Source of the DNA: a virus | Taxonomy: Duplodnaviria > Caudoviricetes | DNA: 64,000 nt | Virus record (IMG/VR): IMGVR_UViG_3300008107_000020 | Reading direction: 5' to 3' (one strand) | In this document: in pieces, positions 24,526 to 53,150 of the stretch | How positions within the stretch are numbered: the stretch's first letter is position 1 | Layout of the letters: each line of letters starts with the position of its first letter | Made by a program: the position numbers and the translations under genes | Notes under the pieces: generated by a model | The model's input: only the letters and a program-made list of their open reading frames with translations | What the model was told of the DNA's origin: nothing | The model's database searches: none

Positions 24526-24546
24526 TCTTAGGGTTACATTAAAAAT

Positions 24547-24577: not shown

Positions 24578-24630
24578 GTTTATATTTGTTTGTTTTTTTA
24601 CTATATTTGTATGGTTAATTAGAAACATTT

Positions 24631-30546: not shown

Positions 30547-31798
30547 CGAATACAATAATACTGAAATCTTAGCAAAAGATTACAAACAACCAGCAAACTC
30601 ATTTATAGTACATTTTGTAAATGGTGCTTTATGTGAAATTAAAGGACCGATATCAAAAAAATACAAGGTTGTTTTTTCTGATAATAAAACTGGGCACGTT
30701 CATCACGTATCTGAGATTACAAATAACATGTGGACTAAAAGTGCCATTGAATATTTTATCGAATGGAATATTAAAGTATATGAGTTAGAAACGGAAGAGT
30801 TAGTTTTTGAACACACATACGATTGTAAAGATAAAAGGGTTTACATCCATTTAGATAGCTCTGCTGTTGGTGATACAATGGCTTGGTTTCCGTATGCGGA
30901 TGAGTTCAGAAAAAAACACGGGTGTAAAGTTTTGTGCTCAACATTCCATAATGAATGGTTTGAGGGTATGTATCCAGAAATTGAATTTGTTAAACCTGGT
31001 ACACCTGTTATTGATTTATACGCAATGTATAAGATTGGTTGGTTTTACGATAATAAAGAAGTTGTTAAAACCAAAATCCCGATTGATTTTAAACAGCACC
31101 CTTTACAAGAAACTAGTTCATGTATTCTAGGGTTGGATTATGAAGAGGTTAAACCAAAGGTTTTTGTACCAGAAGAGCCTAGTAGAATTGAAGGTAAATA
31201 TGTTATTATTGCACCTCACGCATCTGCACACGCTAAATATTGGAATCATCCAGGCGGATGGCAAGGTGTTATTGATCACTTAAATGCTAGTGGTTATAAG
31301 GTTGTTATGATTACATCAGAAAAACTGGGTGATGCTTGGCATGATTCAAAACTTGGTGGTACATTAAGAAATGTTATTGATAAAACTGGTGGTCATATTG
31401 ATCTGGTTGACAGAATGATTGACATTAAACACGCATCGGCTTTTATTGGTTTAGGTAGTGGTTTAAGTTGGTTATCTTGGGCTATCGGAACACCTACAGT
31501 TCTTATCTCTGGATTTAGTTACCCTTTATCTGAGTTTGCTGACTGTGAAAGGATTTTTAACCCAAATGTTTGTAACGGATGTTTTAATAGACATTGGTTA
31601 AACCCAGGGGATTGGGAATGGTGCCCAGATCACAAAGATACACCAAGACACTTTGAATGTTCTAAAACTATTGAAACTCAAACTGTTATAGACGCTGTTA
31701 ATAGACTTTTAACCAAAAAAGAAGAGCCAGTTCAAGAGGTCATTGAAGAAAATTTAGAAAAAAAAGATAAAAAAAGTTTTTTTGGTAAGTTTTTTTAG
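30527..31798 (+). CDS. Aah/TibC-type autotransporter O-heptosyltransferase homolog (BAHT family; protein Ser O-glycosylation)
   Basis: N-terminal beta-barrel F.NGA..I.G; SSAVGDTMAWFPYADEFRKKH; FIGLGSGLSWLSWAIGTPTVLISGFS; iron-finger C-x2-C-x13-C-x11-C (CNGC...WCP...FEC). Confidence 0.88.
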   Translation: MKDILINEYNNTEILAKDYKQPANSFIVHFVNGALCEIKGPISKKYKVVFSDNKTGHVHHVSEITNNMWTKSAIEYFIEWNIKVYELETEELVFEHTYDCKDKRVYIHLDSSAVGDTMAWFPYADEFRKKHGCKVLCSTFHNEWFEGMYPEIEFVKPGTPVIDLYAMYKIGWFYDNKEVVKTKIPIDFKQHPLQETSSCILGLDYEEVKPKVFVPEEPSRIEGKYVIIAPHASAHAKYWNHPGGWQGVIDHLNASGYKVVMITSEKLGDAWHDSKLGGTLRNVIDKTGGHIDLVDRMIDIKHASAFIGLGSGLSWLSWAIGTPTVLISGFSYPLSEFADCERIFNPNVCNGCFNRHWLNPGDWEWCPDHKDTPRHFECSKTIETQTVIDAVNRLLTKKEEPVQEVIEENLEKKDKKSFFGKFF

Positions 31799-31834
31799 GT
31801 ATATTTGTTGCTATAACATATAATAGCAACAACT

Positions 31835-32410
31835 ATGTTTTATAAATATGACGAAAAACAACTCAAATTTGTTAAGAACAAATTGGGTATAAGGATAGCA
31901 TTAGGAACCACCATTTTATTGATGGTTGGTTCCTTTTTTATTGGTAGGTATACCAGCGGTACACTCACTAAATATGAAAAAGAGTATATTCATATTAATT
32001 GGGAAAAAGAACGTAACGCTATTAATAAAGAAAAACTAGCTAAAGAACTAAAAGAATCTGGTATTAAATTCCCACACATTATAATGGCCCAGGCTATTAT
32101 TGAATCTGGTAATTTTAAGAGCGAACTTTATAAATCAAATAATAATCTATTTGGTATGACAATACCTGGTTCAAGAAATACCACCAATATTGCTGTTGAT
32201 GGTAAATATGCTAAATATAACACATGGCAAAGGTGTGTGCTTGATATGGCTTATCTGCAACAATATAATTTAAAGGGTATTAGATTAGGTAATGATGAGG
32301 ATTACTTTATATATTTGAAAAATAGTAATTACGCTGAAGCTCCGAATTATATAGCCGCTTTAAAAAACGTAATAGATAAAGAAAATTTAAAATCTTATTT
32401 TAATGAGTAA
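31835..32410 (+). CDS. GH73 glucosaminidase-like peptidoglycan hydrolase with N-terminal membrane anchor
   Basis: TM segment IALGTTILLMVGSFFIG; MAQAIIESG, NNLFGM, YAKY, YAEAPNY. Confidence 0.75.
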   Translation: MFYKYDEKQLKFVKNKLGIRIALGTTILLMVGSFFIGRYTSGTLTKYEKEYIHINWEKERNAINKEKLAKELKESGIKFPHIIMAQAIIESGNFKSELYKSNNNLFGMTIPGSRNTTNIAVDGKYAKYNTWQRCVLDMAYLQQYNLKGIRLGNDEDYFIYLKNSNYAEAPNYIAALKNVIDKENLKSYFNE

Positions 32411-33236
32411 AGAAAAATTAAAAGATATTCTTTCAACACCAACTTATTGTGGGCAAGAACAATATCTTATAGCAAAAATAACCAAATATCTTAGTGAAAG
32501 TAATCTGGATTATGTTATTGATGAACACGGTAATATCTTCGTAACAAAGGGTATTGCCGAACATTATCCATGTGTTGTTGCACACACTGATTCTGTGCAT
32601 AGAATTGTTGATATGGATATCTTACATCACCCAGATGAAGAAGACATTATATATGCGGTTGAAAAAGGCACAAATAAGCCCACTGGCTGCGGTGGGGATA
32701 ATAAAGCGGGTGTTTATGTATGTTTGGAGTTACTTGAGCGTGTAGAGGTCTTAAAAGCGGCTTTTTTCGTATCTGAGGAATATGGTTGTTTCGGGTCAAC
32801 ACTAGCAGATGAAGTTTTTTTTCAGGATGTTGGTTATGCTTTACAATTTGATGCACCTGAAAACGATTGGGTTACACACTATTGTAATGGTGTTAAGTTA
32901 TTTGACGAAAATGGTGATTTTTATAAAACAATAAAGCCAATATTGGAAGATTACATGGGTGATTATTCTTTAGGTAGACACCCATATACTGATGTTAGTA
33001 TTCTTGGTGCGTTTTATGATTTTTCATGCATCAACTATTCAGTAGGTTATTATAACATGCATTCAAAGATGGAGTATGTTAGTATTAGTTTTGCACAACA
33101 AGCCAGAAATATCGCTTTAGAGATCATTACATCCCTGGGTAATATAAAGTACACATTTGTTGATGAAAACGTCAGAATTGATAAGGAAAAGGCTAAAGAA
33201 AGGGCTTTAAAATCACTTAACGGTTTAAGGAAATAA
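32403..33236 (+). CDS. Zn-metallopeptidase (M20/M28/M42 clan MH)
   Basis: VAHTDSVH, GGDNKAG, SEEYGCFGS, QFDAP, GYYNMHS. Confidence 0.82.
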   Translation: MSKEKLKDILSTPTYCGQEQYLIAKITKYLSESNLDYVIDEHGNIFVTKGIAEHYPCVVAHTDSVHRIVDMDILHHPDEEDIIYAVEKGTNKPTGCGGDNKAGVYVCLELLERVEVLKAAFFVSEEYGCFGSTLADEVFFQDVGYALQFDAPENDWVTHYCNGVKLFDENGDFYKTIKPILEDYMGDYSLGRHPYTDVSILGAFYDFSCINYSVGYYNMHSKMEYVSISFAQQARNIALEIITSLGNIKYTFVDENVRIDKEKAKERALKSLNGLRK

Positions 33237-33262
33237 AAAAAGGGGCGCTAGGCCCCTTTCTT
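33236..33262. terminator. Bidirectional terminator between the peptidase and fibre genes
   Basis: AAAGGGGC-gctag-GCCCCTTT with A/T flanks. Confidence 0.8.
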
Positions 33263-33268
33263 ATTTTA

Positions 33269-33541
33269 TTATTTCTTTAAATCTTGGATCTCTTTATCAA
33301 GATCTTTTATCGCCTCGATAAGTAAACCAACCAAGTTTGAGTAAGCTACCGCTAAGTGTCCATCGGATTCCCTTGTCGAGATAACTTCTGGGACAACTTT
33401 TTGAACTTCCTGTGCAATAACACCCATTTTCAAAGATTTATCTTCAATATCATTTCTTGTATAGTTAACACCTCTCATATTTCTTACTTTATTTAAGGCA
33501 TCACTAATTGTAACAACATTGTCCTTAACTCTTTGATCTGA
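33269..33541 (-). other. Peptidase S74 intramolecular chaperone domain (C-terminus of the fibre)
   Basis: Y|SDQRVKDNV...ALNKVRNMRGVNY...MGVIAQEVQKVVPEVI...VAYSNLVGLLIEAIKDL plus terminal coiled coil. Confidence 0.92.
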
Positions 33542-36500
33542 GTATGCAATAACATCAGCAGATGCGTAGATAGTACCAGTAACATCTAATGTATATGCTG
33601 GAGTAGCGTTGTTAATACCTAATCTTGTATTAGCTATATCCGCTTTCAAGAAGCTAACGCTTTGTACTTGTGTTGTACTCACAGTTCTAACTAAGTAGTC
33701 AGGTTGGTTTGTGAATGAACCACCGCTGATACCTGATGTACCGCTAATTGATTGTCCACTTGTTCCAGCAACACCTGATGTACCGTTTGAACCATTAATA
33801 CCTGAAGTACCACCAGCTCCATTTGCACCTGAGTTACCAGCAGCTCCAGCGGTACCATTTGTACCATTTGCACCAGATGTACCATTTGTACCAGATGTAC
33901 CTGAAGAAGCTGACAATCTACCAGTACCAGCCGTACCGCCAGCACCTGAAGTACCAGATGTACCTGAAGTACCAGAAGATCCGTTAGCACCCGAAGTACC
34001 GTTAGCACCAACACCTGATGTACCAGCACCTGATGTACCTGAAGTACCAGCTGTTGCTGAAGTACCAGAAGAACCAGCTGTACGAGAAAGACCCGATACA
34101 CCACCAGTACCAGTTGTACCACCTGTTGCAGAAGAACCTGATAAACCACTAATACCTGAGTTACCGTTGTTACCAGACGTACCGTTTGTACCAGTTGATC
34201 CTGAAGAACCAGAAGTACGAGATAAACCACTAGCCCCAGCGTTACCATTATTACCAACAGTACCGTTTGTACCAGTTGATCCTGAACTACCTGATGTACC
34301 ACTTGCCTGTGTTACGCCAAAACCTGCGCTTAATGCATTAGCACCCACAGTACCATTTGTACCGCTTGATCCTGAAGAACCAGAAGAGCCAGAGTTTGCA
34401 GAAGCACCAATGTTACCAGCATTACCTGAAGTACCATTTGTACCAGTTGATCCAGATGAGCCACTTAATGCTGACGCACCTATGTTACCCGCAGCACCGT
34501 TTGTACCATTAGACCCTGAAGAACCAGATGAACCAGAGGCTCCTGAGTTAGCAACTAAACCTATTGTACCGCTTGTACCTGAAGAACCACTTGATCCTGA
34601 AGCACCTGATATTCTATCATTACCACTTGTACCCTGAGTACCAGTTGATCCAGAAGATCCAGATGAACCAGAGTTTGCCGATAATCCGTTAGCACCAGCA
34701 TTACCTGAGGTACCGTTTGTACCTGTAGATCCAGACGAACCACTCAATGCTGATGCACCAATGTTACCCGCAGCACCATTTGTACCATTTGTTCCCGAAG
34801 AACCAGATGTACCTGAAAGTGTACTTGTACCAGAAGGAACAACCAAACCATTTGTACCAGCCGTACCTGTAGATCCAGATGAACCACTATTACCTGAGTT
34901 ACCGTTAGCGCCATTGTTACCGTTAGTACCGTTTGTACCATTTGAACCCGATAAACCACTATTACCTGAGTTACCGTTAGCGCCATTGTTACCGTTAGTA
35001 CCAGTAGAACCATTTGTACCACTTAAGCCAGAGTTACCGCTGTTACCATTCACACCGATAGTACCATTTGTTCCTGAAGAACCACTTGATCCAGAAGAAC
35101 CAGATAATCTTGATAAACCTGAAACACCATCTGTACCTGAAGTACCAGTTGATCCAGCTGAACCTGAAGAACCTGAGCTTCTGCTTAAACCCGATTGACC
35201 ATCTGTACCTGAGGTACCTGATGTTCCAGCTGTTGCAGAAGAACCAGCTAATCTACTTAAACCTGATGTACCAACCGTACCGTTTGTTCCTGAAGAACCA
35301 CTTGATCCAGACGAACCTGAAGCACCTGAGTTAGCCATTAAACCGACTGTACCGTTTGTACCGTTTGAACCACTTGAACCAGATGCACCACTTACAGCGT
35401 TGTTACCATTGTTACCTGAGGTACCGTTTGTACCTGTAGATCCAGACGAACCACTCAATGCTGATGCACCATTACCACCGTTTATACCGTTTGTACCAGT
35501 TGACCCTGAAGAACCGCTAGAGCCAGAGTTAGCACTCAATCCGTTGTTACCCGCAGCACCATTTGTACCAAACGTACCTGATGATCCTGAAGAACCTGAA
35601 AGTGTACTTGTGCCAGAAGGAACGGCTAAACCATTTGTACCAGCCGTACCTGTAGATCCAGATGAACCAGAAGATGCTGAAGAACCACTTAATTGTGATA
35701 AACCTGAGTTACCAGTTGTACCTGAAGTACCAGTTGAACCACTGGTACCTGAAGAACCAGAGTTTCTTGATAACCCTGACGCACCATCAGTACCCGCAGT
35801 ACCAGTTGTACCAGAAGAACCTGAAGTTGCAGAAGAACCAGCTAATCTACTTAAACCTGATGTACCATTTGTACCATTTGTTCCTGAAGAACCAGATGAC
35901 CCTGAGGAACCAGAAGCACCTGAGTTAGCCATTAAACCAACAGTACCGTTTGTACCATTAGATCCTGAAGAGCCTGAAGCGCCACTTACCGCATTGTTAC
36001 CATTATTACCGTTAGTACCGTTTGTACCTGTAGATCCAGACGAACCTGAGTTTGCAGAGGCACCACTATTACCAGCAGCTCCAGCAGTACCATTTGTACC
36101 AGTTGTTCCTGAAGAACCTGAAGAACCCGACAATTGTGATAAACCACTATTACCAGCAACACCCGCAGTACCAGTTGTACCAGAAGTTCCTGAAGAACCA
36201 CTTATCGCAGAAAAAGTACTTTGACCTGAAGTTGCGTTAAGACCGTTTGTACCAGACGTACCTGATGAACCAGCTGTTGCTGAAGAACCAGACAACCTAC
36301 TTAAACCAGAAACACCATCTGTACCTGAAGTACCTGTTGAACCAGCTGATCCAGAAGAACCTGATGTATCACTTGCAGCGGATATACCATCTGTACCTGA
36401 AGTACCTGATGTACCAGCTGTTGCTGAAGAACCAGACAATCTTGATAAACCTGATGTACCAACTGTACCATTTGTTCCTGAAGAACCAGATGAAGCAGAT

Positions 36501-39500
36501 GAGCCACTTAATGCGCTTAAACCGTTATTACCAGCATTACCTGAAGTACCATTTGTACCAGTTGATCCAGATGAACCACTTAATGCTGACGCACCTATGT
36601 TACCTGCCACACCATTTGTACCATTTGAACCTGAGGTTGCAGATGAACCACTTAATTGTGATAAACCTGAAGCGCCAGCTGTACCTGAAGTACCAGTTGT
36701 ACCTGATGTCGCTGATGAACCGCTATTTAAGCTTAATCCTGAAGCACCCGCAGTACCATTTGTTCCTGAAGAACCTGAAGTTGCTGAAGAACCAGAACTA
36801 CCACTTAAACCACTATTACCTGAATTACCCGCAGTACCATTTGTACCTGTTGATCCTGAAGAACCTGAGGTCCCTGAAGATCTACTCAATGCCGATGCAC
36901 CGTCTGTACCAGCGGTACCAGTTGTTCCAGAAGTACCTGAAGTACCAGCAGAGCCAGATAATCTTGACAATCCTGATGTACCAACTGTACCGTTTGTTCC
37001 TGAAGAACCTGAAGAAGCGCTTGATCCGCTTAATTGAGACAATCCTGAATTACCAGCTGTTCCGTTTGATCCGCTCGTACCTGAAGTTGCGGATGAACCA
37101 GATGAACCTGCGCTACCACTTAATTGTGATAAACCGTTTGTACCCGCAGTACCTGTTGATCCAGAAGATGCTGAAGAACCAGCTGTTGCACTCAATCCTG
37201 AGTTACCAGCCGCACCTGAAGTACCGTTTGAACCTGTACTACCTGAGCTACCAGATGTACCAGAAGATCTACTCAAACCAGATTGGCCATTAGTACCTGA
37301 AGTACCAGTTGAACCAGCTGAACCTGAGCTACCACTTAATTGTGATAGACCATTTGTACCTGCTGTACCTGAAGTAGCTGAAGTACCAGCTGATCCTGAA
37401 GAACCGCTATTTGCACTAGCACCATTTGTACCGTTTGTACCAGTTGATCCACTTGATCCAGATGTTCCACTTGATTTACTTAATGATGATTGACCATCTG
37501 TTCCATTTGTTCCAGAAGAACCACTTGTTCCTGAAGAACCTGAAGATCTACTTAAACCTGATTGAAGTACCAGCTGTTCCGCTTGTTGCAGAAGAAGCCG
37601 AAGTTCCAGAGGATGCTGAAGCACCTGATACACCCGCAGTACCGTCAGTACCTTTAGAACCACTAGAACCAGAAGTTCCTGAAGTTCCTGAAGTTACACT
37701 TAAACCACTATTTGCAGCTAAACCTGAAGTACCAACCGTACCTGAAGTTGCTGAAGACCCTGAAGTTCCAGCTGAGCCACTATTATTACTTGAACCAATT
37801 GTACCAGCAGTACCAGTTGAACCTGAAGAACCTGAAGTTCCAGAACTTCTACTTAATGCTGAAGCACCATCTGTACCATTTGTTCCTGAAGACCCAGACG
37901 TTCCTGAAGATCCTGAAGATCTACTTAAACCTGAAGTACCATTTGTACCACTTGAACCAGAAGAAGCAGAAGATCCACTTAATTGTGACAACCCTGAAGC
38001 ACCTGCTGTACCGCTTGAACCAGAAGTACCTGAAGTTGCTGAAGAACCACTAGAACCAGACAATCTTGATAAACCTGATGTACCAACTGTTCCTGAGGTG
38101 GCTGAAGAACCAGCAGACCCTGAAGAACCACTGTTTGCTGATTGACCACTCGTACCGTTTGTACCAGTTGATCCTGAAGAACCAGAAGTTGCTGAAGAAC
38201 CCGAGTTGGCACTCAATCCTGAAGTAGCCGCTGAACCTGAACTACCTGAAGTTCCTGAAGTCGCAGATGTACCCGCAGAACCACTTGAACCTGATAATTG
38301 AGATAAACCATTTGTACCAGCTGTACCTGTAGTACCAGAAGATGCACTTGTACCTGATGAACCCGCATTTGCAGATGCACCATTTGTACCATTTGTACCT
38401 GTAGACCCACTAGAACCTGAAGTTCCAGCTGAGCCACTATTATTTGAAGAACCTGAGGTTCCAGCTGTACCTGAAGTTGCTGAAGAACCACTAGAACCTG
38501 ATGAACCCGCATTTGCAGAAGCACCATTTGTACCATTTGTTCCAGTTGTACCACTTGTTGCCGAAGAACCTGAGGTTGAACTTAAACCACTATTACCAGC
38601 ATTACCTGAAGTACCATTTGTACCCGTAGACCCAGACGAACCTGAAGTTCCTGAAGAACCTGAGCTTCTACTTAAACCTGATTGACCATCTGTACCTGAA
38701 GTACCAGTTGAACCAGCTGATCCCGATGTACCTGAAGTATCACTTGTAGCAGACACACCATCCGTACCTGAAGTACCAGACGTTCCAGCTGTTGCTGAAG
38801 AACCAGACAGTCTTGATAAACCGTTTGTACCAGCGGTACCAGTTGTTCCAGAAGAACCACTTGATGCGCTTGATCCACTTAATTGTGATAAACCAGAAAG
38901 ACCCGCAGTACCATTTGTACCAGTAGATCCTGAAGATGCTGAAGTACCGCTTGAACCACTATTTGCCGATTGACCACTTGTACCAGCGCTACCTGAAGAT
39001 GCTGATGATCCTGAAGAACCAGATGTTCCAGAAGTTGCACTTGATCCAGCACTACCTGAAGATCCGCTTAATTGAGACAATCCTGAGGTTCCAACCGTTC
39101 CAGAAGTTGCTGAAGAACCTGATGTAGCGGAGCTACCACTATTCGCACTCGCACCATTAGTACCATTTGTACCCGTAGAACCTGAAGAACCTGATGTTCC
39201 ACTTGATCTACTTAATGATGATTGACCATCTGTTCCAGAAGTTCCTGTAGAACCTGAAGAACCACTTGTTCCAGAAGTATCACTTGTAGCAGACACACCA
39301 TCTGTACCTGAAGTACCTGATGTACCAGCTGTTGCTGAAGAACCACTTAATCTACCCAATCCTGAAGTACCAGCGGTACCACTTGTAGCAGATGAACCAG
39401 AAGTTGCTGAAGAACCACTATTTGCACTCGCACCCGAAGTTCCATTAGAACCAGTTGAACCTGATGTTCCAGAAGTTGCTGAAGAACCAGCAGAACCACT

Positions 39501-42500
39501 TAAACCTGAGGATCCAGCTGTTCCTGAAGTTGCACTAGACCCTGAAGAACCTGAACTACCAGATGAACTACTTAAAGCTGAAGAACCAACTGTACCAGTA
39601 GTACCTGATGTACCACTTGATGCGGATGTTCCTGAAGAACCACTATTTGCAGCTAAACCTGAAGTACCATTTGTACCAGTTGATCCGCTTGATCCTGAAG
39701 AACCTGATGTTCCCGAAGATTTACTTAATGCAGAAGCACCGTCTGTACCAGCTGAACCACTTGATCCTGAAGAACCAGAAGTTCCTGAAGTTGCTGATGT
39801 TCCCGCTGAACCTGAGCTACCGCTTAACTGAGATAATCCAGATGTACCGACCGTACCTGAGGTCGCTGAAGAACCACTTGTAGCTGAACTACCTGAGTTA
39901 GCTGAAGCACCATTTGTACCGTTTGAACCAGTCGATCCAGATGAACCTGATGTTCCAGAACTTCTGCTTAAACCAGACTGGCCATCCGTACCTGAAGTAC
40001 CAGTTGAACCACTTGATCCAGATGTACCTGAAGTATCACTTAAAGCAGATTGACCATCCGTACCTGAAGTACCTGATGTACCAGCCGTTGCTGAAGAACC
40101 TGATAATCTACTTAAACCTGAGGTTCCAACCGTACCTGAAGTAGCTGAAGAACCTGAAGTAGCTGAGCTACCACTATTCGCTGATTGGCCACTTGTACCA
40201 GCAGAACCAGAAGACCCACTTGTACCAGATGTTGCTGAAGAGCCAGCTGAACCCGCACTACCACTTAATTGTGATAAACCACTTGTACCAGCTGTACCTG
40301 AAGTTGCTGAACTACCAGAAGTAGCTGAAGAACCTGAGTTTGCTGATGCACCGTTTGTACCGTTTGTACCAGTTGAACCTGAAGAACCTGAAGTTCCAGA
40401 ACTTCTACTTAATGCTGAAGCACCATCTGTACCAGAAGAACCTGAACTACCAGAAGAACCTGAAGTTCCACTTGTAGCCGAAGTACCCGCACTACCTGAA
40501 GATCCAGATAATTGAGATAAACCGTTTGTACCAGCGGTTCCTGAAGTAGCGGAGCTACCTGATGTTGCTGAAGAACCACTATTTGCGCTTAAACCAGATG
40601 TACCGTTTGTTCCTGTACTACCTGAAGATGCTGATGTACCAGCCGATCCTGAAGACGCTGATAAACCAGATGACCCTGAAGTTCCTGAGGTTGCAGAAGA
40701 ACCTGCACTACCAGCTGAACCGCTTAACGCTGAACTACCTGATGTTCCAGAAGTTGCTGAAGAACCCGAACTACCAGCAGAACCCGAAAGTTGACTTAAA
40801 CCTGATGTACCAGCTGTTCCTGATGTAGCTGAAGTCCCAGCAGAACCTGAGCTACCACTATTTGCACTTGCACCATTTGTACCGTTTGTACCTGTAGACC
40901 CACTAGAACCTGATGTACCCGAAGATCTACTCAAAGCAGACGCACCGTCCGTACCATTTGTTCCAGAAGAACCTGATGTACCCGATGAACCTGAAGATCT
41001 ACTTAAACCCGATGTACCGTTTGTTCCTGAAGAACCGCTTGATGCACTCGATCCGCTTAATTGTGATAAACCTGAGTTACCAGCGGTACCTGAAGTACCA
41101 GTTGTACCTGAGCTAGCTGAAGAACCAGCAGACCCTGAAGAACCGCTTAATTGTGACAAACCTGATGTACCTGCGGTACCGCTTGTTGCGGAACTACCAG
41201 AAGTTGCTGAAGAACCTGAATTTGCGGATGCACCATTTGTACCGTTTGTACCTGTAGACCCACTAGAACCTGATGTACCCGAAGATCTACTCAATGCCGA
41301 TGCCCCATCAGTACCTGCTGATCCTGAACTACCTGAACTACCTGAAGTTCCAGAAGTTGCTGAAGTTCCAGCCGATCCTGAAGAACCTGATAATTGAGAT
41401 AAACCATTTGTACCAGCTGTACCTGAAGTTGCAGAAGAACCACTTGATCCTGAAGATCCAGAGTTTGCAGAAGCACCAACAGTACCGCTTGTACCACTTG
41501 ATCCTGAAGAACCTGAAGTTCCAGCAGAACCACTATTATTTGAAGAACCTGAAGTTCCAGTTGTACCAGTTGTACCTGAAGAAGCGCTTGTACCAGATGA
41601 ACCAGAGTTAGCTGAAGCACCATTTGTACCGCTTGTACCAGTTGTACCGCTTGTTGCAGAAGAACCTGAAGTTGCGCTTAAACCACTATTACCTGCATTA
41701 CCTGAAGTACCGTTTGTACCAGTTGATCCGCTTGATCCTGAAGAACCAGAAGTTCCTGAAGATTTACTTAATGCAGAAGCACCGTCTGTACCAGCTGAAC
41801 CTGAAGATCCACTTGATCCAGATGTACCTGAAGTAGCTGAAGTTCCAGCAGAACCCGATGAACCACTCAATTGAGACAAACCAGAAGTACCAGCTGTGCC
41901 TGAGGTTGCGGATGAACCAGAAGTTGCTGAAGACCCTGAATTTGCGGATGCACCATTTGTACCAGCTGATCCTGAAGATCCACTTGAACCTGATGTACCA
42001 CTTGATTTACTTAATGCCGATTGACCATCTGTACCTGATGTACCAGTTGAACCGCTTGAACCAGACGTTCCTGAAGTATCTGATGTAGCTGATTGTCCAT
42101 CCGTACCTGAAGTACCAGACGTTCCAGCTGTTGCTGAAGAACCAGACAATCTTGATAAACCTGATGTACCAACTGTTCCTGAAGTTGCAGATGAACCTGA
42201 AGTTGCTGAAGAACCACTATTTGCTGATTGACCACTTGTACCAGCAGAACCTGAAGATCCTGAAGATCCTGATGTACCACTAGTTGCTGAAGAACCAGCG
42301 GATCCAGCACTACCGCTTAATTGTGATAAACCACTTGTACCAGCTGTACCTGAAGTAGCGGAAGAACCTGATGTTGCTGAACTACCAGAGTTTGCAGAAG
42401 CACCATTTGTACCCGCAGTTCCAGTTGATCCTGATGAACCAGAGGTACCACTTGATTTACTTAAAGCGGATGCTCCATCAGTACCAGCCGATCCTGAAGA

Positions 42501-45500
42501 CCCGCTTGATCCAGAAGTTCCTGAAGTTGCTGATGTACCAGCGGATCCACTTGACCCACTCAATTGTGACAACCCTGATGTACCAGCGGTTCCTGAGGTA
42601 GCTGAACTACCTGAAGTTGCGGATGAACCACTATTTGCGGCTAAACCTGAAGTACCATTAGAACCTGTAGAACCAGAAGATGCTGATGTACCAGAAGATG
42701 CTGATAATGCACTTAAACCTGAAGAACCTGCGGTTCCTGACGTTGCTGAAGAACCTGAACTACCAGCAGAACTGCTTAACGCTGAACTACCAGAGGTACC
42801 TGTTGTACCACTTGTTGCGGAACTACCGCTTGTCGCAGAAGAACCGCTATTTGCAGCTAAACCTGAAGTACCATTTGTACCAGTAGAACCTGAAGATCCA
42901 CTTGAACCAGATGTACCTGAAGATTTACTTAATGCTGACGCACCATCAGTACCCGCACTACCTGAAGAACCAGAAGAACCTGATGTTCCTGAAGTCGCAG
43001 ATGTACCCGCTGAACCAGAAGAACCACTTAATTGAGACAATCCTGATGTACCAACTGTACCTGAAGTTGCGGATGAACCAGAAGAAGCTGAAGTTCCTGA
43101 AGAAGCTGAAGCCCCACTAGAACCAGCTGAACCAGTTGACCCACTTGTTCCTGAGGTTGCGGATGAACCCGCAGAACCTGAAGAACCACTATTAGCTGAA
43201 GAACCAACTGTACCAGTAGTACCTGATGTACCACTTGATGCGCTTGTTCCTGATGAACCTGAATTTGAACTTAATCCTGAAGTACCATTTGTACCTGAAG
43301 TTGCTGAAGATCCGCTTGACGCTGATGTCCCTGAAGACGCTGATGCTCCCGAAGAACCGTTAGAACCTGTAGAACCAGAGGTACCACTTGTTGCTGAACT
43401 ACCAGAAGACGCTGATAAACCAGATGAACCTGCGGTTCCTGAAGTTGCTGAAGATCCTGATGAAGCTGAACTACCAGAATTAGCTGATAAACCTGAGGTA
43501 CCATTTGTACCTGAAGTTGCTGAAGAACCAGCTGTACCACTTGTTGCTGAAGACGCTGAAGCTCCTGATGAACCACTTGTTCCTGTAGAACCAGCTGTAC
43601 CGCTTGTTGCTGAACTACCAGAAGATGCTGACAACCCACTTGAACCAGCTGAGCCAGAAGTTGCGGATGATCCTGATGTAGCAGAGCTACCACTATTTGC
43701 ACTCAACCCTGATGTACCATTTGTTCCACTTGTAGCTGAACTACCAGAAGAAGCGGATGTACCTGAAGAAGCTGAAGCACCTGAAGCACCAGCTGTACCG
43801 CTTGAACCAGAGGTACCTGAAGTTGCAGAAGAACCACTTGAAGCACTTAAACCTGAAGAACCAGCTGTACCTGAAGTAGCGGAGCTACCTGAAGTCGCTG
43901 AGGATCCGCTTAATGCGCTTAAACCACTTGTACCATTTGTTCCTGAAGTTGCGGATGAACCAGAAGATGCTGATGTACCTGAAGAAGCTGAAGCTCCTGA
44001 TGACCCTACTGAACCTGAAGAACCTGATGTTCCTGACGTAGCAGAACTACCAGAACTTGCACTCAATCCTGAAGAACCTGCGGTTCCTGAAGTTGCTGAG
44101 GATCCTGATGTGGCAGAGCTACCACTATTTGAAGATAGACCTGACGTACCAGCTGTTCCTGAAGTAGCGGAGCTACCTGAAGAACCTGATGAACCAGAAC
44201 TATTACTATTTCCACTCGAACCTGCGGTTCCTGAAGAAGCTGAACTTCCTGAAGAACCCGATGTACCACTAGTTGCAGATGACCCACTTGTAGCGGATGA
44301 TCCAGAATTAGCAGCTAAACCTGAAGTACCATTTGTACCTGAAGTTGCTGAAGATCCGCTTGACGCTGATGTCCCTGAAGATGCGCTTAAACCTGAAGAA
44401 CCAGCTGATCCAGCTGAACCTGATGTTCCTGACGTAGCAGAACTACCAGAAGATGCGCTTAAACCTGAACTACCTGATGTACCGCTTGTAGCAGAGCTAC
44501 CTGAGGTTGCAGAAGAACCTGAATTAGAACTCAACCCTGATGTACCATTTGTTCCTGAAGTTGCGGATGAACCAGAAGATGCTGATGTACCTGAAGAAGC
44601 TGAAGCTCCTGATGAACCAGCGGAACCACTTGTTCCCGAAGTACCAGAAGATGCTGAACTACCAGAAGATGCACTTAAACCTGAAGAACCAGCTGTACCT
44701 GAAGTTGCAGAAGAACCAGAGGAAGCTGATGACCCACTATTTGAGGCTAAACCTGAAGTACCATTTGTTCCACTTGTAGCTGAACTACCAGAAGAAGCTG
44801 ATGTACCAGAAGAAGCTGAAGCCCCTGAAGAACCTGATGTACCAGATGATCCTGAAGTAGCGGAAGTTCCTGAAGAACCCGCTGAACCAGAGCTACCACT
44901 ATTTGCGGCTAAACCAGAAGTACCATTTGTACCTGAAGTTGCGGAAGAACCAGAAGAAGCTGAAGTTCCTGAAGAAGCTGATGCTCCCGAAGAACCGTTA
45001 GAACCTGTAGAACCAGATGTTCCACTTGTTGCTGAAGATCCAGAAGAAGAACTTAAACCTGAAGAACCAACTGTTCCTGAGGTTGCGGATGAACCTGATG
45101 TTCCTGAAGAACCAGAGTTACTAGATAAACCGCCAGTACCATTTGTACCCGTAGAACCGCTTGAACCAGATGTTGCTGAAATAGCAGAAATACCATCAGC
45201 ACCATCAACACCGCTTGAACCAGATGTACCTGAAGAACCCGAAGAACCTGATGTTTTACTTGAACCAGCTAAACCGCTTGTACCTGTCGTACCTGAAGTC
45301 GCAGATGTACCTGAAGTTGCAGAAGAACCACTATTTGAAGATAATCCTGAAGTACCGTTTGTTCCTGAAGTTGCTGAAGATCCGCTTGATGCAGATGTTC
45401 CTGATGTTGAAGAAACACCGCTTGATCCAGCTGTACCAGAAGTTGCTGAAGAACCTGAGGTTGCTGAACTACCAGAAGATGCAGATAAACCCGAAGATCC

Positions 45501-48500
45501 TGATGTACCACTTGTAGCAGAACTACCTGAGGTTGCAGAAGAACCACTATTTGAAGATAAACCCGAAGTACCGTTTGTTCCTGAAGTTGCAGAAGAACCA
45601 GATGATGCAGACGTACCTGAAGTTGCTGAAGCACCTGAAGAACCAGCGCTACCTGTTGATCCTGATGTTCCTGATGTAGCACTTGATCCAGCTGAACCAG
45701 AAGACGCACTTAAACCAGAAGTACCAACTGTACCAGAAGTTGCTGAAGAACCTGAAGAAGCTGAAGCGCCAGAATTACCACCAGTTCCTGAAGTTCCTGA
45801 AGAACCACTTGAACCAGATGAGAATGATAATCTACTTTGACCAGCAACACCAGTTGTACCATTTGTACCAGAAGAACCAGAAGAACCTGAAGTTTCACTT
45901 AAACCACTGTTTGAACTAGCACCATTTGTACCGCTAGAACCTGAGGTTGCAGAAGAACCTGAGGTTGCGCTTGAACCACTATTTGCGGCTAAACCAGAAG
46001 TACCGATTGTACCTGAAGTTGCAGACGAACCTGAAGATGCTGCTGAACCTGATGACCCACTTTCACCACTTGAACCATTAGAACCTGATGTTCCTGAAGA
46101 ACCAGCTGTTCCTGAAGAGGCTGAGTCGCCAGAACTTCCTGATGTTCCAGTAGAGCCTGAAGCACCACTTGAACCAGATGTTCCAGTAGAACCGTTATCA
46201 CCAGAAGAACCGTTTGTTCCTGAAGAACCAGAAGCGCCTGATTCACCATTTAAACCATTTATACCTGAAGAACCTGAAGATCCAGTTGACCCTGAAGACC
46301 CACTTTCACCACTTTCACCTGAAGTACCAAAACTACCACCATCACCAGATGTACCATCGCTACCTGTAGAACCAGATTCACCCGATTGACCAGATGTCCC
46401 AAATGAGCCATCATTACCCGAAGATCCATCGCTACCTGTAGAACCAGATTCACCACTTATTCCTGAAGTTCCTGAAGAACCGTTATCACCGCTTGTACCA
46501 TCCGATCCTGTACTACCACTTTCACCGCTTATTCCTGATGTACCGTTAGAACCTTCGTTTCCTGATGTACCATCTGATCCAGTTGAACCTGATTCACCAC
46601 TTATTCCTGAAGTTCCTGAAGAACCGTTATCACCGCTTGTACCATTTGAACCAGTTGACCCAGAGTCGCCACTTACACCCGATGTACCATTAGAACCATC
46701 ATTACCTGATGTACCATCTGAACCAGTTGAACCGCTTTCACCTGATAAACCACTTGTACCGTTAGATCCGTTATTACCTGATGTGCCATCACTACCCGTG
46801 CTACCACTTTCACCTGATACACCAGAAGTTCCACTTGAACCATTATCACCAGAAGAACCATCTGAACCAGTTGATCCCGATTCTCCACTTATACCAGAGG
46901 TTCCGTTGGAGCCATCATCACCTGAAGAACCGTTAGTTCCTGAAGAACCTGAAGCTCCGCTTTCACCATTTAAACCATTTATACCTGAAGAACCTGAAGA
47001 TCCAGTTGATCCCGAAGACCCACTTTCGCCAGATTGGCCAGATGTTCCAAATGAACCATCATTACCTGAAGAACCATCTGATCCAGAGGATCCAGACTCA
47101 CCTGATATACCAGATGTTCCAAATGAACCATCATTACCTGAAGATCCATCGCTACCTGTGGAACCAGATTCACCCGATTGACCAGATGTACCGTAAGACC
47201 CATCAGCCCCACTTGATCCATCTGACCCAGTTGATCCAGACTCACCACTTATTCCCGAAGTCCCTGAAGATCCGTCATTACCTGATGTGCCATCACTACC
47301 AGTTGAACCTGATTCTCCACTTATTCCTGAAGTTCCATTTGAACCATTATCACCGCTACTACCATCACTACCAGTTGATCCAGACTCACCACTTATTCCT
47401 GAAGTCCCATTAGATCCGTCATTACCTGAAGATCCGTCTGAACCAGTTGAACCACTTTCACCTGATTGACCTGAAGTTCCGTTGGAACCATCGTTACCTG
47501 AAGACCCATCTGAACCAGTAGACCCAGATTCACCACTTATACCAGAGGTTCCAAAACTACCGTTAGCTCCTGAAGAACCGTCTGAACCAGTTGAACCTGA
47601 TTCACCACTTATACCAGAGGTTCCGTTAGAACCGTTATCACCAGAAGAACCGTTAGTTCCTGAAGAACCTGAAGCTCCGCTTTCACCATTTAAACCATTT
47701 ATACCTGAAGAACCTGAAGATCCAGTTGATCCTGAGGATCCCGATTCACCACTTTCACCTGAAGTACCAAAACTACCGTCAGCTCCTGAAGAACCATCAC
47801 TACCCGTGCTACCACTTTCACCTGATTGACCAGATGTTCCTGAAGAACCGTCATTACCTGAAGATCCGTCTGAACCTGTGCTACCACTTTCACCGCTTAT
47901 CCCTGATGTTCCAAATGAACCATCCGCTCCTGAAGAACCATCTGACCCAGTTGATCCAGACTCACCACTTATTCCTGAAGTACCATTAGATCCGTCATTA
48001 CCAGATGTACCATCTGATCCAGTAGACCCAGATTCACCTGATTGGCCAGAGGTTCCAAATGAACCGTCAGCCCCACTTGATCCATCGGATCCTGAAGACC
48101 CAGATTCACCTGATTGGCCAGAGGTTCCAAATGAACCGTCAGCCCCACTTGATCCATCGGATCCTGTAGAACCAGATTCACCTGATTGGCCAGAAGTACC
48201 AAAAGATCCATCATTACCTGAAGAACCTGAAGATCCAGTTGATCCCGATTCTCCACTTATTCCTGAAGTTCCATTAGATCCGTCATTACCTGAAGATCCG
48301 TCTGAACCTGTGCTACCACTTTCACCACTTATTCCTGAAGTCCCATTTGAGCCATTATCGCCTGATGTACCATCTGAACCAGTTGATCCTGACTCGCCAG
48401 ATTGGCCAGAAGTACCAAAAGATCCATCATTACCTGAAGACCCATCTGATCCAGTAGACCCAGATTCACCCGATTGACCAGAGGTTCCAAATGAACCATC

Positions 48501-50597
48501 ATTACCTGAAGACCCATCTGAACCTGTGCTACCGCTTTCACCCGATTGACCAGAAGTACCATTTGATCCGTCATTACCTGAAGAACCATTGGATCCGTTT
48601 GATCCCGATTCACCACTTATTCCTGAAGTTCCATCAACACCATCAACACCATCAACACCATTTGTACCAGAAGTACCACTTTCACCTGATGTACCAGATT
48701 CACCCGATGAACCACTTTCACCAGATTGGCCAGATGTACCGTTAGAACCATCCGCTCCTGAAGAACCATCTGAACCAGTAGACCCAGATTCACCACTTAT
48801 ACCAGAGGTTCCTGAAGAACCGTCATTACCACTACTACCATCACTACCAGTTGAACCAGATTCCCCTGAAGTCCCGTTAACGCCTGTTGTACCAGAATCA
48901 CCGTCCGAACCGTTAGTTCCTGAAGAACCTGAAGCTCCGCTTTCACCATTTAAACCATTTATACCTGAAGAACCTGAAGACCCAGTTGATCCTGAAGACC
49001 CACTTTCGCCAGATTCACCTGAAGTTCCATTTGAACCATTATCACCACTACTACCATCACTACCTGTACTACCACTTTCTCCACTTACCCCTGAAGTTCC
49101 TGAAGAACCATCATTACCTGATGATCCATCTGATCCTGTACTACCGCTTTCACCACTTATACCTGAAGTTCCGTTGGAACCATCGTTACCGCTTTCACCT
49201 GATGTACCATTACTGCCTGATTCACCAGAAATACCTGAAGTACCAAAACTACCATCATTACCACTTGACCCATCTGATCCTGTTGATCCCGATTCACCAC
49301 TTATACCAGAGGTTCCGTTAGAACCACTTTCTCCACTTATTCCTGAAGTTCCTGAAGAACCATCATTACCACTAGATCCGTCAGACCCTGTTGAACCTGA
49401 TTCACCAGAAATACCTGAAGTACCAAAACTACCGTCAGCTCCTGAAGAACCATCTGATCCTGTTGACCCAGATTCACCAGAAATACCAGAAGTTCCATTG
49501 GAACCATCGGCACCACTTTCACCTGAAGTACCAGTTGACCCTGATTCACCTGAAACACCTGAAGTACCATTAGAACCATCGTTACCGCTTATCCCACTTG
49601 TGCCATCAACACCATCAACACCATCAATACCATTTGTACCAGAAGTACCAGATTGACCACTCGTACCATCATTTCCTGTGCTACCAGATTCACCTGATAT
49701 ACCTGATGTTCCATTTGAACCATCCGCTCCTGAAGAACCATCTGAACCAGTACTACCAGATTCACCACTTACTCCTGAAGTCCCTGAAGATCCGTCATTA
49801 CCTGATGTGCCATCACTACCAGTTGAACCTGATTCACCACTTATACCAGAGGTTCCGTTGGAACCATCTGCTCCTGAAGAACCGTCAGAGCCAGTTGAAC
49901 CACTTTCTCCACTTATTCCTGAAGTTCCTGAAGAACCATCATTACCACTTTCACCTGATGTGCCATTACTACCACTTTCTCCACTTAAACCTGAGGTTCC
50001 GTTACTACCATCATTACCCGATGTACCATCTGATCCTGTTGACCCAGATTCGCCAGACATCCCCGAAGTTCCGTTGGAGCCATCGGCACCGCTTTCACCT
50101 GAAGTACCAGTGCTACCTGATTCACCACTTATCCCTGAAGTTCCTGAAGAACCATCATTACCACTACTACCATCACTACCATTACTACCTGATTCTCCAG
50201 AAACACCAGATGTACCATCAGAACCACTCAAACCCGAATAACCTGAAGTACCAGCTGTACCAGAAGTACCTGTTAATAAAGGTGAATATGAATATTCACC
50301 AGTAGCTGCATTAAACGACACAAAATAGTTCGGTGAACTATTTTCGGTCATTCCTGTAACAAATAACTCATTTAAAATATAAACACCCTTAAGATCTTGG
50401 GTGTTTTCCCACTGTCCAGTGGTATCGTTCCAAACTAAAATGTCCCCTTCATTGGGGCCACTAATTACAACGTCAGATAGATCATCTATTCCAAGATTTT
50501 CTATAACGTCTTTTATATTTTGGAAGTTAGCATCTAATTCCGCATAGGATAGTGCCCTTCCTAGATCGTCTCTAAGATAAATTGTTACTGTTGCCAT
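33269..50597 (-). CDS. Giant Ser/Thr-rich Gly-X-X repeat virion fibre, about 5,780 aa if repaired; present here as 37548..50597 plus a +1-frame continuation to 33269
   Basis: Fibre-type N-terminus (LR...G.AL.Y.ELD.NF; DDLSDVVI...GDILVWN...W.N), over 5,400 aa of triplet repeats, C-terminal S74 chaperone. Repeat register is continuous across the break at 37563-65. Confidence 0.85.
33700..50270 (-). repeat. Degenerate 9-nt (triplet-residue) tandem repeat array with higher-order 72-nt and 720-nt units
   Basis: G-X-X periodicity. The GINGLNGES marker recurs at + positions 46251, 46971, 47691 (exact 720-nt spacing) and 48951. Confidence 0.95.
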
Positions 50598-50684: not shown

Positions 50685-53150
50685 TTATTCTGTGATGTTA
50701 ACGTTTATTTTTTCACTCTTAATATTATAAGTTAAACTTATTTTACCAGATTTAGGCATTTGTTTACGTAACATTTCGTCTGAAATCGGGTCCTCTACAT
50801 ATTTCTGTATGGTTCTTTGGATTTCCCTAGCCCCGTATAGTTTATTAAAACCTTTTTCCAAAATAAATTCTTTAGATTTTTTATCAATTTTAAATGTAAA
50901 CCCAACATTTTTTAAGTGATTTTCAAAATCCTTTAATTGTAAATCAATAATTTTAACAACATCATCTTGTGTTAGATAATTAAAATAAACAATTTCATCC
51001 AAACGATTAATAAATTCTGGTTTAAAAGTTTTCTTAAGGTTTTTTTCAATAATACTTTTTGAGTTTACAATCGCATCCGCTTCAGAATCATTAAAACCGA
51101 TTTTAGTACCAAAATCTTGAACCTCTTTCAAACCGATATTTGATGTCATGATGATAATGGTATTTTTGAAATTAATTTTTCTACCGTTAGCATCGGTTAA
51201 ATAACCCTCATCAAGTAATTGAAGCATAACATTGAAAATATCTGGGTGAGCCTTTTCAATCTCATCAAATAAAACCAAAGAATATGGTTTATTTTTAACT
51301 TTCTCCGTTAATTGACCACCTTCGTTATACCCAACATAACCTGGGGGTGCCCCAATTAACTTACTAATATTAAATTTTTCGGAGTATTCGGACATATCGA
51401 CACGGATAATAGCATCTTGAGAACCAAAAACTTTTTCAGCTAAACATTTTGCTAATTCTGTTTTACCAACACCAGTTGGTCCAATAAATAAGAATGAACC
51501 GATTGGTTTAGATTGTTTTCTAATACCAGTTCTATTTCTTTTGATTGATGAAACAACTTTATCGATTGCATCTGATTGACCAATAACACAATTAGCCAAT
51601 TCACCATCCATTGATAATAATCTTGTTACCTCATTCTCAGAGACTTTACTAACAGGTATACCCGTCATCATTGATACTACTTCGGAGATCATATCATCCG
51701 TCACAATATTTCTTTTATCATTAATCGATAACTTCCACATTGAATTTTCTTTATCTAACTCGGTAAGAATTTTTTTCTCTTGATCACGAAGCTGCGCTGC
51801 CTGCTCAAAATTTTGGGTTTTAACAACTTGTTGTTTTTGATCCTTAATCTCTTTTAACTTAAGTTCAAGATCCTTTATTTTTTGTGGTGCCTTAACCGCC
51901 ACCTGAGTTCTTGAACCAGCCTCATCCATGATATCGATAGCCTTATCAGGGAATTCCCTGTTTGTGATATAACGATCAGCCAATGCGATAATTTCATCAA
52001 TAGCCTCTTCAGTGTATGTTACTTTATGGAAATCTTCGTATTTCTCTTTAATATTCATAAGGATTTCTTTAGTCTCACTTAAGATTGGTGGGTTAACCAT
52101 AACTTTTTGGAATCTTCTATCTAAAGCACCATCCTTTTCAATATGCTCACGATATTCATCAAGAGTTGTTGCACCAATACATTGGAGTTCTCCACGGGCT
52201 AATGCGGGTTTAAATACGTTTGCAGCGTCTAACGAACCCGATGAATTACCAGCACCAACAATTGTATGTAATTCATCAATGAAAAGAATCACATTTGGGT
52301 TATCTTTAGCCTCATCAACAATAGCTTTAATTCTCTCCTCAAACTGACCACGATATTTTGTACCAGCAACCAACGATGTCATATCTAATGTTACAACACG
52401 TTTGTTCATTAGAGGCCTTGGGCAATCACCGTTCGCAATTTTAATTGCTAAACTTTCAGCGATAGCTGTCTTACCAACACCTGGATCACCAATAAGAATC
52501 GGGTTATTTTTCTTTCTTCTTGTTAAAATTTGACAAACCCTCTCAACCTCAGATGCACGACCTATTACAGGATCTAATTTACCTTCTTGTGCTAAAACAG
52601 TTAAATCACGACCAAAATTATCTAATGTCGGTGTTTTTGATTTAATATTTTTATTTGCCTCGTTTAATGGTTTCCTATCTCTAGGTAACTCATCATCATT
52701 AGAGAATACGCTGGCTTGTGGTGTTGATAATTGTTTAATTTTCTTAGCGATAAAAGTTTTTGTTAAACCATATTCCTTAAAAAGTTTAACAATCGCATTA
52801 TCTTTTTCCATTGAGATTAGAAAGAAAAGCTCAACAGTGATGTAGTCGGTTGGCTTTTTCCTTACGATACACTCTTTAATTATTTCTTGAAGATCTGACT
52901 CAAAAGGTAAGATACCATCTTGTTTACCATTAGATGAATCGGAAAGCCTCTTATTAATGTCATTTAAGTCATTAACCATCACATCAAAATCCAATACTTT
53001 GTTTTTGACAACCTCATAAATCATATTCTCAGTAGTAAGGATACCGAATATAACATGTTGTAACCTAAGCATCGAGTCATCATACTTAATTGCCACGGAT
53101 TGCCCCCTAGTAAAGGCGCTTCTTAACTCATTTGTCATTCTTTCTTTCAT
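50685..53150 (-). CDS. clpC: ClpC-type Hsp100 ATPase
   Basis: Clp N-domain; NBD1 [15 protein letters not shown]; UVR coiled coil ([15 protein letters not shown]); NBD2 [17 protein letters not shown]; IGF loop; [11 protein letters not shown]. Confidence 0.93.

Follow-up and report, generated by a model that had tools for sequence, protein, structure and literature searches.

A candidate gene for a very long, nearly proline-free collagen-like fibre in a large freshwater T4-like phage

Can one phage gene encode a collagen-like fibre of several thousand residues that makes almost no use of proline? This question is raised by nucleotides (nt) 33269..50597 on the minus strand of a 64,000-nt stretch of viral DNA (IMG/VR record IMGVR_UViG_3300008107_000020), which we call the window. 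An earlier reading by a model that saw only the letters (here, the sequence-only reading) had placed there, with the right coordinates and strand, a fibre protein of about 5,780 amino acids (aa) ending in an S74 chaperone. Having followed this up computationally, we consider it reasonably likely that the locus represents a single gene whose product is a very long homotrimeric fibre on the virion of an uncultured large T4-like phage from fresh water.

The repeat gene and its selection

Under translation table 11 the locus consists of two frames and is not a single open reading frame (ORF). For analysis only, we read both frames through (ORF A and ORF B below) as a product of 5,774 aa, in which a 109-aa non-repeat N-terminus is followed by 1,838 residue triplets (aa 110 to ~5624), a neck of ~60 aa and an S74 domain of 90 aa. 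Judging from the sequence, the true gene encodes ~5,800 aa and its product probably exceeds 5,774 aa slightly. The break into two frames had been missed by the sequence-only reading. The parts of the gene are:

37548..50597, minus strand: ORF A, ATG start, 4,349 aa, TAG at 37548-37550
33269..37561, minus strand: ORF B, +1 frame, open from 37663 and sensible from 37561, stop at 33269
50271..50597, minus strand: N-terminal anchor, aa 1-109, conserved in relatives
46122..50270, minus strand: zone 1, strict Gly-X-Y repeat, aa 110-1492 (triplet count, Pfam Collagen)
37563..46121, minus strand: zones 2-3 within ORF A, neutral Gly/Ala-X-Ser repeat in unbroken register
37559..37571, minus strand: frame break, ...GGTACTTCA|ATCAGGTTTAAG... 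(paralogue alignment, contigs L152 and L153)
36782..37562, minus strand: segment where three otherwise identical assemblies differ (contig comparison)
34040..36781, minus strand: zone 3 continued in the frame of ORF B, Asn- and Leu-richer triplets
33725..34039, minus strand: register slip (GAG, GVG) and 29 tip-proximal triplets (Pfam Collagen, 42.6 bits)
33542..33724, minus strand: non-repeat neck (GGSFTNQPDYLVRT...IYASADVIAY), conserved in relatives and inside the modelled trimer interface
33272..33541, minus strand: S74 intramolecular chaperone, 90 aa, from the predicted cleavage Ser (SDQRVK) onward (Pfam PF13884, PHROG, trimer model)

The 1,838 triplets keep a single register, with one slip (GAG/GVG) near aa 5523. 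Position 1 is Gly in 1,483 triplets (81%) and Ala in 240, the remainder being Ser, Arg, Gln, Asn or Lys; position 2 is Ser or Thr in 69% and position 3 is Ser in 67%. Gly is found at positions 2 and 3 in 37 of 3,676 cases, mostly in the tip-proximal triplets after the slip, and the triplet pattern as a whole is far beyond chance. The near-absence of Pro from the repeats that had been claimed is borne out by 8 Pro residues in the 5,774-aa read-through (0.14%), which contains 1,951 Ser. All tandem periods (72, 81, 90, 144, 162, 180 and 216 nt) are multiples of 9 nt, and the Pfam Collagen model (PF01391) scored well above its cut-off of 27.2 bits in every zone (111-255 bits per ~500 aa).

The strictness of the repeat varies along the gene. 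In zone 1 position 1 is Gly in 100% of 461 triplets; this zone is acidic (~12% Asp+Glu, with Lys and Arg absent), has a higher-order period of 24 aa and gives 255 bits per 491 aa with Pfam Collagen. At the other end, the last 29 triplets have Gly at position 1 with a single interruption (GRLSAS), and their Gly columns are invariant across relatives. Between these strict ends lie ~4,000 aa with 355 non-Gly triplets, where Ala, Ser, Arg or Gln replaces Gly every second to fourth triplet and runs of Gly mostly span 1-3 triplets, with a maximum of 10. Inside ORF A, zones 2-3 (111-153 bits) have Gly at position 1 in 68-80% of triplets, and otherwise Ala, Ser, Gln, Arg or Asn; the neutral Ala-rich middle has 68-71% and the Leu- and Asn-richer distal part 75-88%, with 80-88% for zone 3 in the frame of ORF B. 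The sequence-only reading had counted ~1,800 triplets with a small first residue, a description that conceals the confinement of strict Gly to the 461 triplets of the base and the 29 of the tip.

Several observations show that this is a real gene under selection, as had been suspected from third-position variation between repeat copies. We compared 9,693 pairs of identical 12-mer peptides: they differ at 48% of their codons, and the DNA is shared by only 2% of the pairs. The gene contains no exact DNA repeat of 101 nt or more, and independent contigs carry similarly long frames: one starts with the same anchor and stays open to the contig end, over at least 4,334 aa, and others that end in S74 measure at least 4,989, up to 4,970, up to 3,685, ~4,184 and 3,190 aa. 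The length is therefore no artefact. In a gap-free comparison of 301 zone-2 codons with two relatives (L001 and L005), protein identity was 96% and 95% whereas DNA identity was only 83% and 81%, with a dN/dS of 0.13, so that by this measure the repeats are under purifying selection. Indels between relatives are multiples of 3 aa, and close relatives keep 80 of 93 Ala positions. In distant relatives Gly and Ala exchange frequently, with 186 Gly against 65 Ala at the window's non-Gly positions.

The repeat gene has a GC content of 46% against 31%. This rise is located in codon position 2 (0.83), while GC at third positions (GC3, 0.13) and synonymous codon choice match those of the flanking phage genes, from which we conclude that the composition reflects the codons of Gly, Ser, Thr and Ala. 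A horizontal origin of the GC-rich block was ruled out on the same grounds. An exact database look-up of ORF A returned no record, and a word-index search among proteins of 2,391-7,611 aa found none carrying the anchor.

The frame break

We compared the break at 37563|37562 with paralogous repeats and with other assemblies. All paralogous repeats align over the break with a 4-nt gap (GGTAC[TTCA]ATCAGG). Two further JGI contigs, L152 and L153, were reached via an identity look-up of a neighbouring 277-aa ORF. L152 (JGI 3300008110 Ga0114343_1000015, 171,895 bp) is 100% identical to the window at 22403-36781 and 37563-43272 and departs from it only in 36782-37562, which puts the phage genome at 172 kb or more. 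L153 (85,824 bp) is 100% identical at 22403-36980 and 37031-37562 and then diverges to the contig end. The segment 36782..37562 measures 781 nt in the window and 745 nt in L152, and L153 has a 51-nt gap there. At the window's break L152 is in frame (…GTAGTS|GLSQLSG…), with 63 residues that are absent from the window, and L153 is in frame from the other side (…GTNGT|SGLSRSS…). The window therefore joins an L152-like left part to an L153-like right part with 4 bases surplus.

Both L152 and L153 have private frame-breaking lesions elsewhere in the same 0.8-kb segment, where the other two assemblies are in frame; gene callers split the L152 fibre gene into 4,425, 139 and 1,113 aa. Because the lesions are private and the other assemblies are in frame at each, we read the break as a repeat mis-join, and from these comparisons we are fairly confident that it is an assembly artefact, the remaining doubt falling on real heterogeneity in a hypervariable segment. 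The gene might instead be truly broken, by a recent frameshift or within a hypervariable, phase-variable segment, and yield a 4,349-aa product that lacks the chaperone. The window as given does carry the break, and three assemblies that each have a lesion within the same 0.8 kb could reflect real population heterogeneity. This explanation is nevertheless unlikely, since each lesion is private to one assembly, the 4-nt overlap is still visible where the L152-like and L153-like parts meet, and ORF B runs without further stops over 4.3 kb. Moreover, an anchor is missing from ORF B and a C-terminal domain from ORF A, in contrast to relatives whose slot truly holds two genes, and a known +1 slippery motif is absent. 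The bin covering 36782..37562 has the highest summed k-mer depth in public runs.

Three other accounts of the break were considered and dropped. A loss of 14 nt fits some paralogues (as does a 4-nt excess) and was superseded by the mis-join seen in the contigs; a programmed +1 frameshift at TCA-ATC-AGG has no known slippery motif there and its product would shift the Gly register; and in a two-gene reading, as in relatives G001 and G002, neither half has its missing terminal domain. Logan contigs of four runs consisted, over the gene, of short pieces with hundreds of spurious joints, and none of the pieces listed spans the break. Exact-pattern scans for the junction (2-9 free bases) in viral and metagenome contigs gave no match, and an orthologue of the break site was absent from the first 60 loci.

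Ends, fold and length of the fibre

At the N-terminus, the short anchor that had been proposed is indeed a non-repeat domain of ~109 aa, 50-94% identical in 24 IMG/VR loci and always in the same genomic position. It has the features MATVTIYLR..LGRALSY.ELDANF.NIK, a copy of a fibre repeat at aa 36-67 and then a transition motif, YFVSF..TGE.SYS. Against Pfam and Protein Data Bank (PDB) profiles it gave nothing at E values up to 10, and an AlphaFold2 (AF2) model had a confidence score (pLDDT) of 48, too low for a fold search. An assignment to the N-terminal domain of T4 gp9/gp10 (PF07880) was rejected, as it rested on a language-model likeness of 0.92-0.93 that profile searches did not back. The repeat at aa 36-67 (P0001; window ~50397-50492), GIDDLSDVVI..PN.GDILVWN..T.QWEN, recurs 4-26 times in 2,213 large library proteins and, from its sequence, appears to be a widespread phage-fibre repeat.

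At the C-terminus, the last 90 aa match the S74 family (PF13884, E 7e-15, 55 bits against a cut-off of 22 bits), and PHROG profiles of tail-fibre C-termini match the same region (E 1e-33), in agreement with the short segment and S74 chaperone seen earlier. In endosialidase S74 the catalytic dyad is Ser911/Lys916. The fibre's cleavage site, AY|SDQRVK, likewise has Ser and Lys five apart, and S..RVK is invariant in 10 relatives. The non-repeat neck of ~60 aa is 86-93% identical in relatives, and neck and S74 together 57-93%.

We then modelled three copies of the last 330 aa. This gave an interface score (ipSAE) of 0.91, where the best of 3 controls scored 0.00; partner pLDDT did not fall below 57, and the runs agreed on at least 76% of contacts. 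The confident interface covers residues 181-329 of the segment, that is, the C-terminal 150 aa with neck and S74, and leaves the repeats unplaced, so that a trimeric prediction was obtained for the tip and not for the repeat. The mark used had been calibrated on 30 solved pairs, of which 20 reached it, and on 23 single chains, of which 1 did; these figures are approximate here given our own alignment and the three copies, and the pass may also reflect likeness to solved S74 trimers. In the model, S74 and neck would supply the trimerisation domain expected next to a collagen-like repeat.

Based on these data, we propose that S74 would trimerise and set the register of the neck and the adjoining strict Gly-X-Y run, and would then cleave itself at the Ser of AY|SDQRVK, the neck becoming the distal tip. 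Folding would run from there toward the N-terminus along ~1,840 Gly-X-Ser triplets, and the N-terminal 109 aa would serve as its attachment to the particle. A strict acidic collagen repeat would make up the base (1,383 aa), and the middle and distal ~4,000 aa, as an imperfect Ala-interrupted repeat, would probably form a looser, flexible collagen-like or polyproline II trimer. Fibre length and repeat content would evolve fast, with both ends fixed.

How long such a fibre might be depends on the imperfect zones. At 0.286 nm per residue, the strict base would measure ~0.4 micrometre and all triplets together ~1.6 micrometres. The larger figure holds only if the imperfect zones are also an extended triple helix, and micron length is unproven. 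The sequence-only reading had inferred that the fibre, if fully extended, could approach 1.5 micrometres. A uniform collagen helix of that length is not supported by the sequence, in which strict Gly-X-Y covers only ~1,470 aa (~0.4 micrometre).

Several points weigh against a triple helix along the whole fibre. About 1 in 4 triplets of the middle zone have no Gly at position 1, and we know of no stable collagen that tolerates Gly loss at such a rate. Features that stabilise collagen, either imino acids or charge pairs at X and Y, are scarcely available: Pro is virtually absent (8 of 5,774), zone 1 is strongly net negative with no basic Lys or Arg partners, and the later zones are nearly uncharged. 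The presence of the fibre in the virion is likewise a prediction from genes.

In a rival reading, order is limited to the two ends, perhaps with zone 1, and the middle ~4,000 aa form a disordered, mucin-like, heavily glycosylated tether or brush; the triplet pattern would then reflect descent from collagen repeats together with a Gly-X-Ser glycosylation sequon. The 355 non-Gly triplets with Gly runs of mostly 1-3, the free interchange of Gly and Ala in distant relatives (186 Gly vs 65 Ala), and the Ser/Thr-rich composition next to a protein-Ser transferase all fit this idea. It accounts poorly for a register held over 5,400 aa despite saturated synonymous divergence, for the near-exclusion of Gly from positions 2 and 3, for indels and repeat periods that are always multiples of 3 aa, for Ala positions conserved among close relatives (80/93) and for purifying selection (dN/dS 0.13), and we regard it as doubtful. 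The unbroken register, the exclusion of Gly from positions 2 and 3, the 3-aa indels and the conserved Ala argue, indirectly, for a period-3 structural constraint in the imperfect zones. An AF2 monomer model of a zone-2 segment (13-row alignment; pLDDT 27, no secondary structure) bears on neither disorder nor a trimer.

It is very improbable that the repeats form a compact polyglycine II bundle or a beta-solenoid, which would make the fibre much shorter than the extended estimate. Polyglycine II bundles, as in the snow-flea antifreeze protein and phage S16 gp38, do use a three-residue periodicity with small residues; such bundles need Gly at two of three positions, whereas positions 2 and 3 of the fibre are almost never Gly. 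In addition, every language-model neighbour of zone 2 is a Pfam Collagen cluster.

A TibC-type transferase, the conserved slot and known systems

The genes on either side of the fibre gene are:

31835..33236, plus strand: glucosaminidase-domain protein and a highly conserved peptidase-like ORF, convergent with the end of the fibre gene
30527..31798, plus strand: homologue of the TibC/AAH-type protein O-heptosyltransferases (bacterial autotransporter heptosyltransferases, BAHT; E 6e-61 to 4RAP/4RB4)
24631..30546, plus strand: glycan block with a GT1/GT4 glycosyltransferase (917 aa), an FkbM-type methyltransferase, a GT1 glycosyltransferase (316 aa) and a carbamoyltransferase (Pfam, synteny)
50685..53150, minus strand: Clp/Hsp100 two-ring AAA+ ATPase (Pfam AAA_2, AAA_lid_9, ClpB_D2-small, UVR)

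From the fibre end onward, the convergent order is peptidase-like ORF, glucosaminidase, GT9 (the TibC homologue), carbamoyltransferase, GT1, FkbM-type methyltransferase, 917-aa GT1/GT4 and major capsid protein (MCP), and the glycosylation block is present in all relatives that have the C-terminal end of the fibre. TibC is a BAHT that acts in the cytoplasm on TibA and AIDA-I, where it hyperglycosylates Ser but not Thr; its catalytic base is Asp110, its sugar is bound by Lys230, Arg286, Trp305 and Thr226, and its iron finger uses Cys 339, 342, 358 and 370 (PMC4358343). In an alignment to 4RAP, the phage transferase has the base and three of the four sugar-binding residues identical (Asp110, Lys230, Arg286, Trp305), with Thr226 replaced by Ser, and keeps all four iron-binding Cys (vCngC...wC...feC). 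It differs from known BAHT enzymes in its thumb region, and while their known substrates are beta-helical autotransporter passengers of Proteobacteria (PMC4358343), its candidate substrate is a phage fibre. No autotransporter substrate was found in the window or in related loci; the sole repetitive Ser-rich candidate acceptor is the fibre with its 1,951 Ser. The conserved protein-Ser heptosyltransferase beside the gene gives independent support to the earlier idea of glycosylation, and from the sequences the fibre is probably O-glycosylated.

To see how far the enzyme and the repeat go together, we examined other loci. Relatives of the enzyme are encoded on 234 viral stretches. Of these loci, 28 offer 15 kb of sequence or more, and in 25 of the 28 a Gly-X-Ser/Thr triplet ORF lies within 10 kb of the TibC-like gene. 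In other phages, such an ORF was present at 6 of 24 S74 loci; four of these six also have a TibC-like gene and the other two are marginal. The pairing also occurs in Microcystis phage Mel-JY01, the nearest cultured phage by MCP (32% identity), where a Gly-[Ser/Thr]-Ser ORF of at least 1,016 aa is separated by 1.7 kb from a TibC-like domain that is fused to FkbM and has 42% identity. We found no literature that links this enzyme family to phage fibres.

Three further points weigh against this part of the picture. The position that sets donor stereo-selectivity is Pro300 in TibC, Ser in AAH and Gly in the phage transferase, which bears on the donor sugar; two huge phages (L149 and L150; LR756501.1 and LR756504.1, 636-735 kb) with TibC-like proteins of 37-41% identity have no Gly-X-Ser ORF within 20 kb of the gene; and the co-occurrence counts are phylogenetically non-independent. 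Given the two huge phages, the link between transferase and fibre is strong but not universal. Under our proposal the TibC-type enzyme would O-glycosylate the Ser-rich surface in the cytoplasm, the GT1 enzymes, the methyltransferase and the carbamoyltransferase would elaborate the glycan, and the sugar would stabilise the fibre in the way that hydroxyproline stabilises animal collagen. The fullest form of this idea, in which BAHT-type hyperglycosylation of Ser in a Gly-X-Ser triple helix of about a micron replaces hydroxyproline and permits Ala at Gly positions, is put forward tentatively.

In the Mel-JY01 record (PP395634.1, L144/L145) the repeat frame at 2-3052 (plus strand), which includes globular nodes, runs off the start of the record, and the gene probably continues across this arbitrarily chosen start of the genome. 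Over this frame the record annotates two 'hypothetical proteins' (1-651 and 739-2298) in antisense. Long plus-strand ORFs inside the window's fibre gene (44110-45840, 36247-37293 and others, up to 576 aa) are antisense by-products of a stop-poor repeat, which gene callers can pick as they did in that record. Genes of this kind are undercounted, since public assemblies systematically break them or have them annotated on the opposite strand.

The window also carries TerL, a T4-type portal, a prohead protease, a gp23-type MCP and PhoH and, by these genes, belongs to a large T4-like phage, whose DNA is present in lake, river and other freshwater metagenomes from 14 studies. Freshwater 'moraphages', with predicted Bacteroidota hosts, have a core with glycosyltransferases, ClpA, PhoH and a peptidase, and a collagen-like fibre is not mentioned for them (PMC12619734); in gene content the window resembles them. 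The Clp ATPase gene lies 87 nt upstream of the fibre gene on the same strand and is directly upstream in all 23 of 23 relatives bearing the N-terminal anchor; the ATPase may unfold or disaggregate the giant polypeptide. Between these fixed neighbours the slot varies in relatives from ~2,000 aa in two genes (1,104 + 904) to 7,200-7,600 aa in two genes. In the latter, gene 1 begins with the anchor and closes with a globular end, and gene 2 begins with 'MANEHIIRSG' and closes with S74; the slot in the window has one fused gene.

In relatives with two fibre genes (L062 G002:C1:17500-19500, L061, L007), globular nodes lie between repeat blocks. One node is GANYYGSF...ITFNNTGVYEIGYSPQI and the other is a C-terminal domain of ~180 aa ending in ...YEIIYSVKLLLK; neither has a Pfam match. 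Beyond the Clp gene lies a 2-oxoglutarate-Fe(II) oxygenase of the prolyl-hydroxylase type (PF13640, E 2e-13; window 54176-54844 and 53715-54179, both plus strand), conserved in position in all relatives, yet the fibre is nearly without Pro or Lys. A second cluster of sugar genes, at 2-5598 (plus strand), includes a WbsX-type glycosyltransferase and weak GT1 and GT2 matches, with PhoH among them; it also holds a small HAD-type hydrolase with a weak PHROG match to 'phosphoheptose isomerase'.

How does this fibre compare with known systems? Phage collagen-like fibres were reportedly treated by Smith et al. in 1998 under the name 'Bacteriophage collagen'. Collagen-like tail fibres are known from phages and prophages, namely EPclA-D of E. 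coli O157 (PMC3368898) and orf28 of P-SSM2 (PMC1079782). Like the window's fibre, these have Gly-X-Y repeats, theirs being rich in Ser, Thr and Pro, between N-terminal phage domains and C-terminal trimerising domains, and are presumed trimeric; they differ in having tens to a few hundred triplets and in containing Pro. The window's fibre has ~1,840 triplets with only 0.14% Pro, position 3 is Ser in 67% of them, and its non-strict zone extends over ~4,000 aa. Fibres and tailspikes chaperoned by S74 include the K1F endosialidase and T5 pb1. Like these, the window's protein ends in an S74 domain with Ser and Lys spaced by five, is predicted to form a trimer and has a short beta-rich neck before that domain, but their shafts are beta-helices or beta-rich stalks of hundreds of residues, not thousands of collagen-type triplets. 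O-glycosylated surface filaments with collagen-like GXT/GXS repeats or fibrils are also found in the exosporium nap of Bacillus anthracis (BclA), in vent-worm cuticle collagen and in Mimivirus fibrils, where dedicated neighbouring enzymes add the sugar and sugar can stabilise Pro-poor triple helices. Besides belonging to other organisms, these have much shorter collagen regions, use C1q-like or different nucleation domains and depend on transferases of other families; giant-virus glycans are reviewed in PMC9614988. Mel-JY01 shares the pairing of a Gly-[Ser/Thr]-Ser fibre ORF with a TibC-like domain and differs in its shorter fibre with some Pro, globular nodes and a non-S74 end, and in the fusion of the transferase to the FkbM methyltransferase. 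New with respect to known fibres are the sheer size, a Gly-X-Ser chemistry that is free of Pro, long zones that stay in register despite Ala interruptions, and the conserved pairing with a TibC-type protein-Ser transferase and glycan-tailoring genes.

If our proposal is correct, this fibre would rank with the longest filaments that a single phage gene encodes, at several times the particle size, and would change the picture of host encounter for abundant freshwater phages. It would provide a natural test of a collagen-type helix without proline and with Ala at Gly positions. For TibC-type heptosyltransferases, so far known only as virulence-associated enzymes that modify autotransporters, it would be a new class of substrate. 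The glycosylation idea is the most testable of the new ones, Mel-JY01 being a cultured system in which it can be addressed. Under the tentative fullest form of that idea, the fibre would be the first substrate of this enzyme family that is not an autotransporter, and the locus would define a new class of glycocollagen in which fibre length is a fast-evolving trait.

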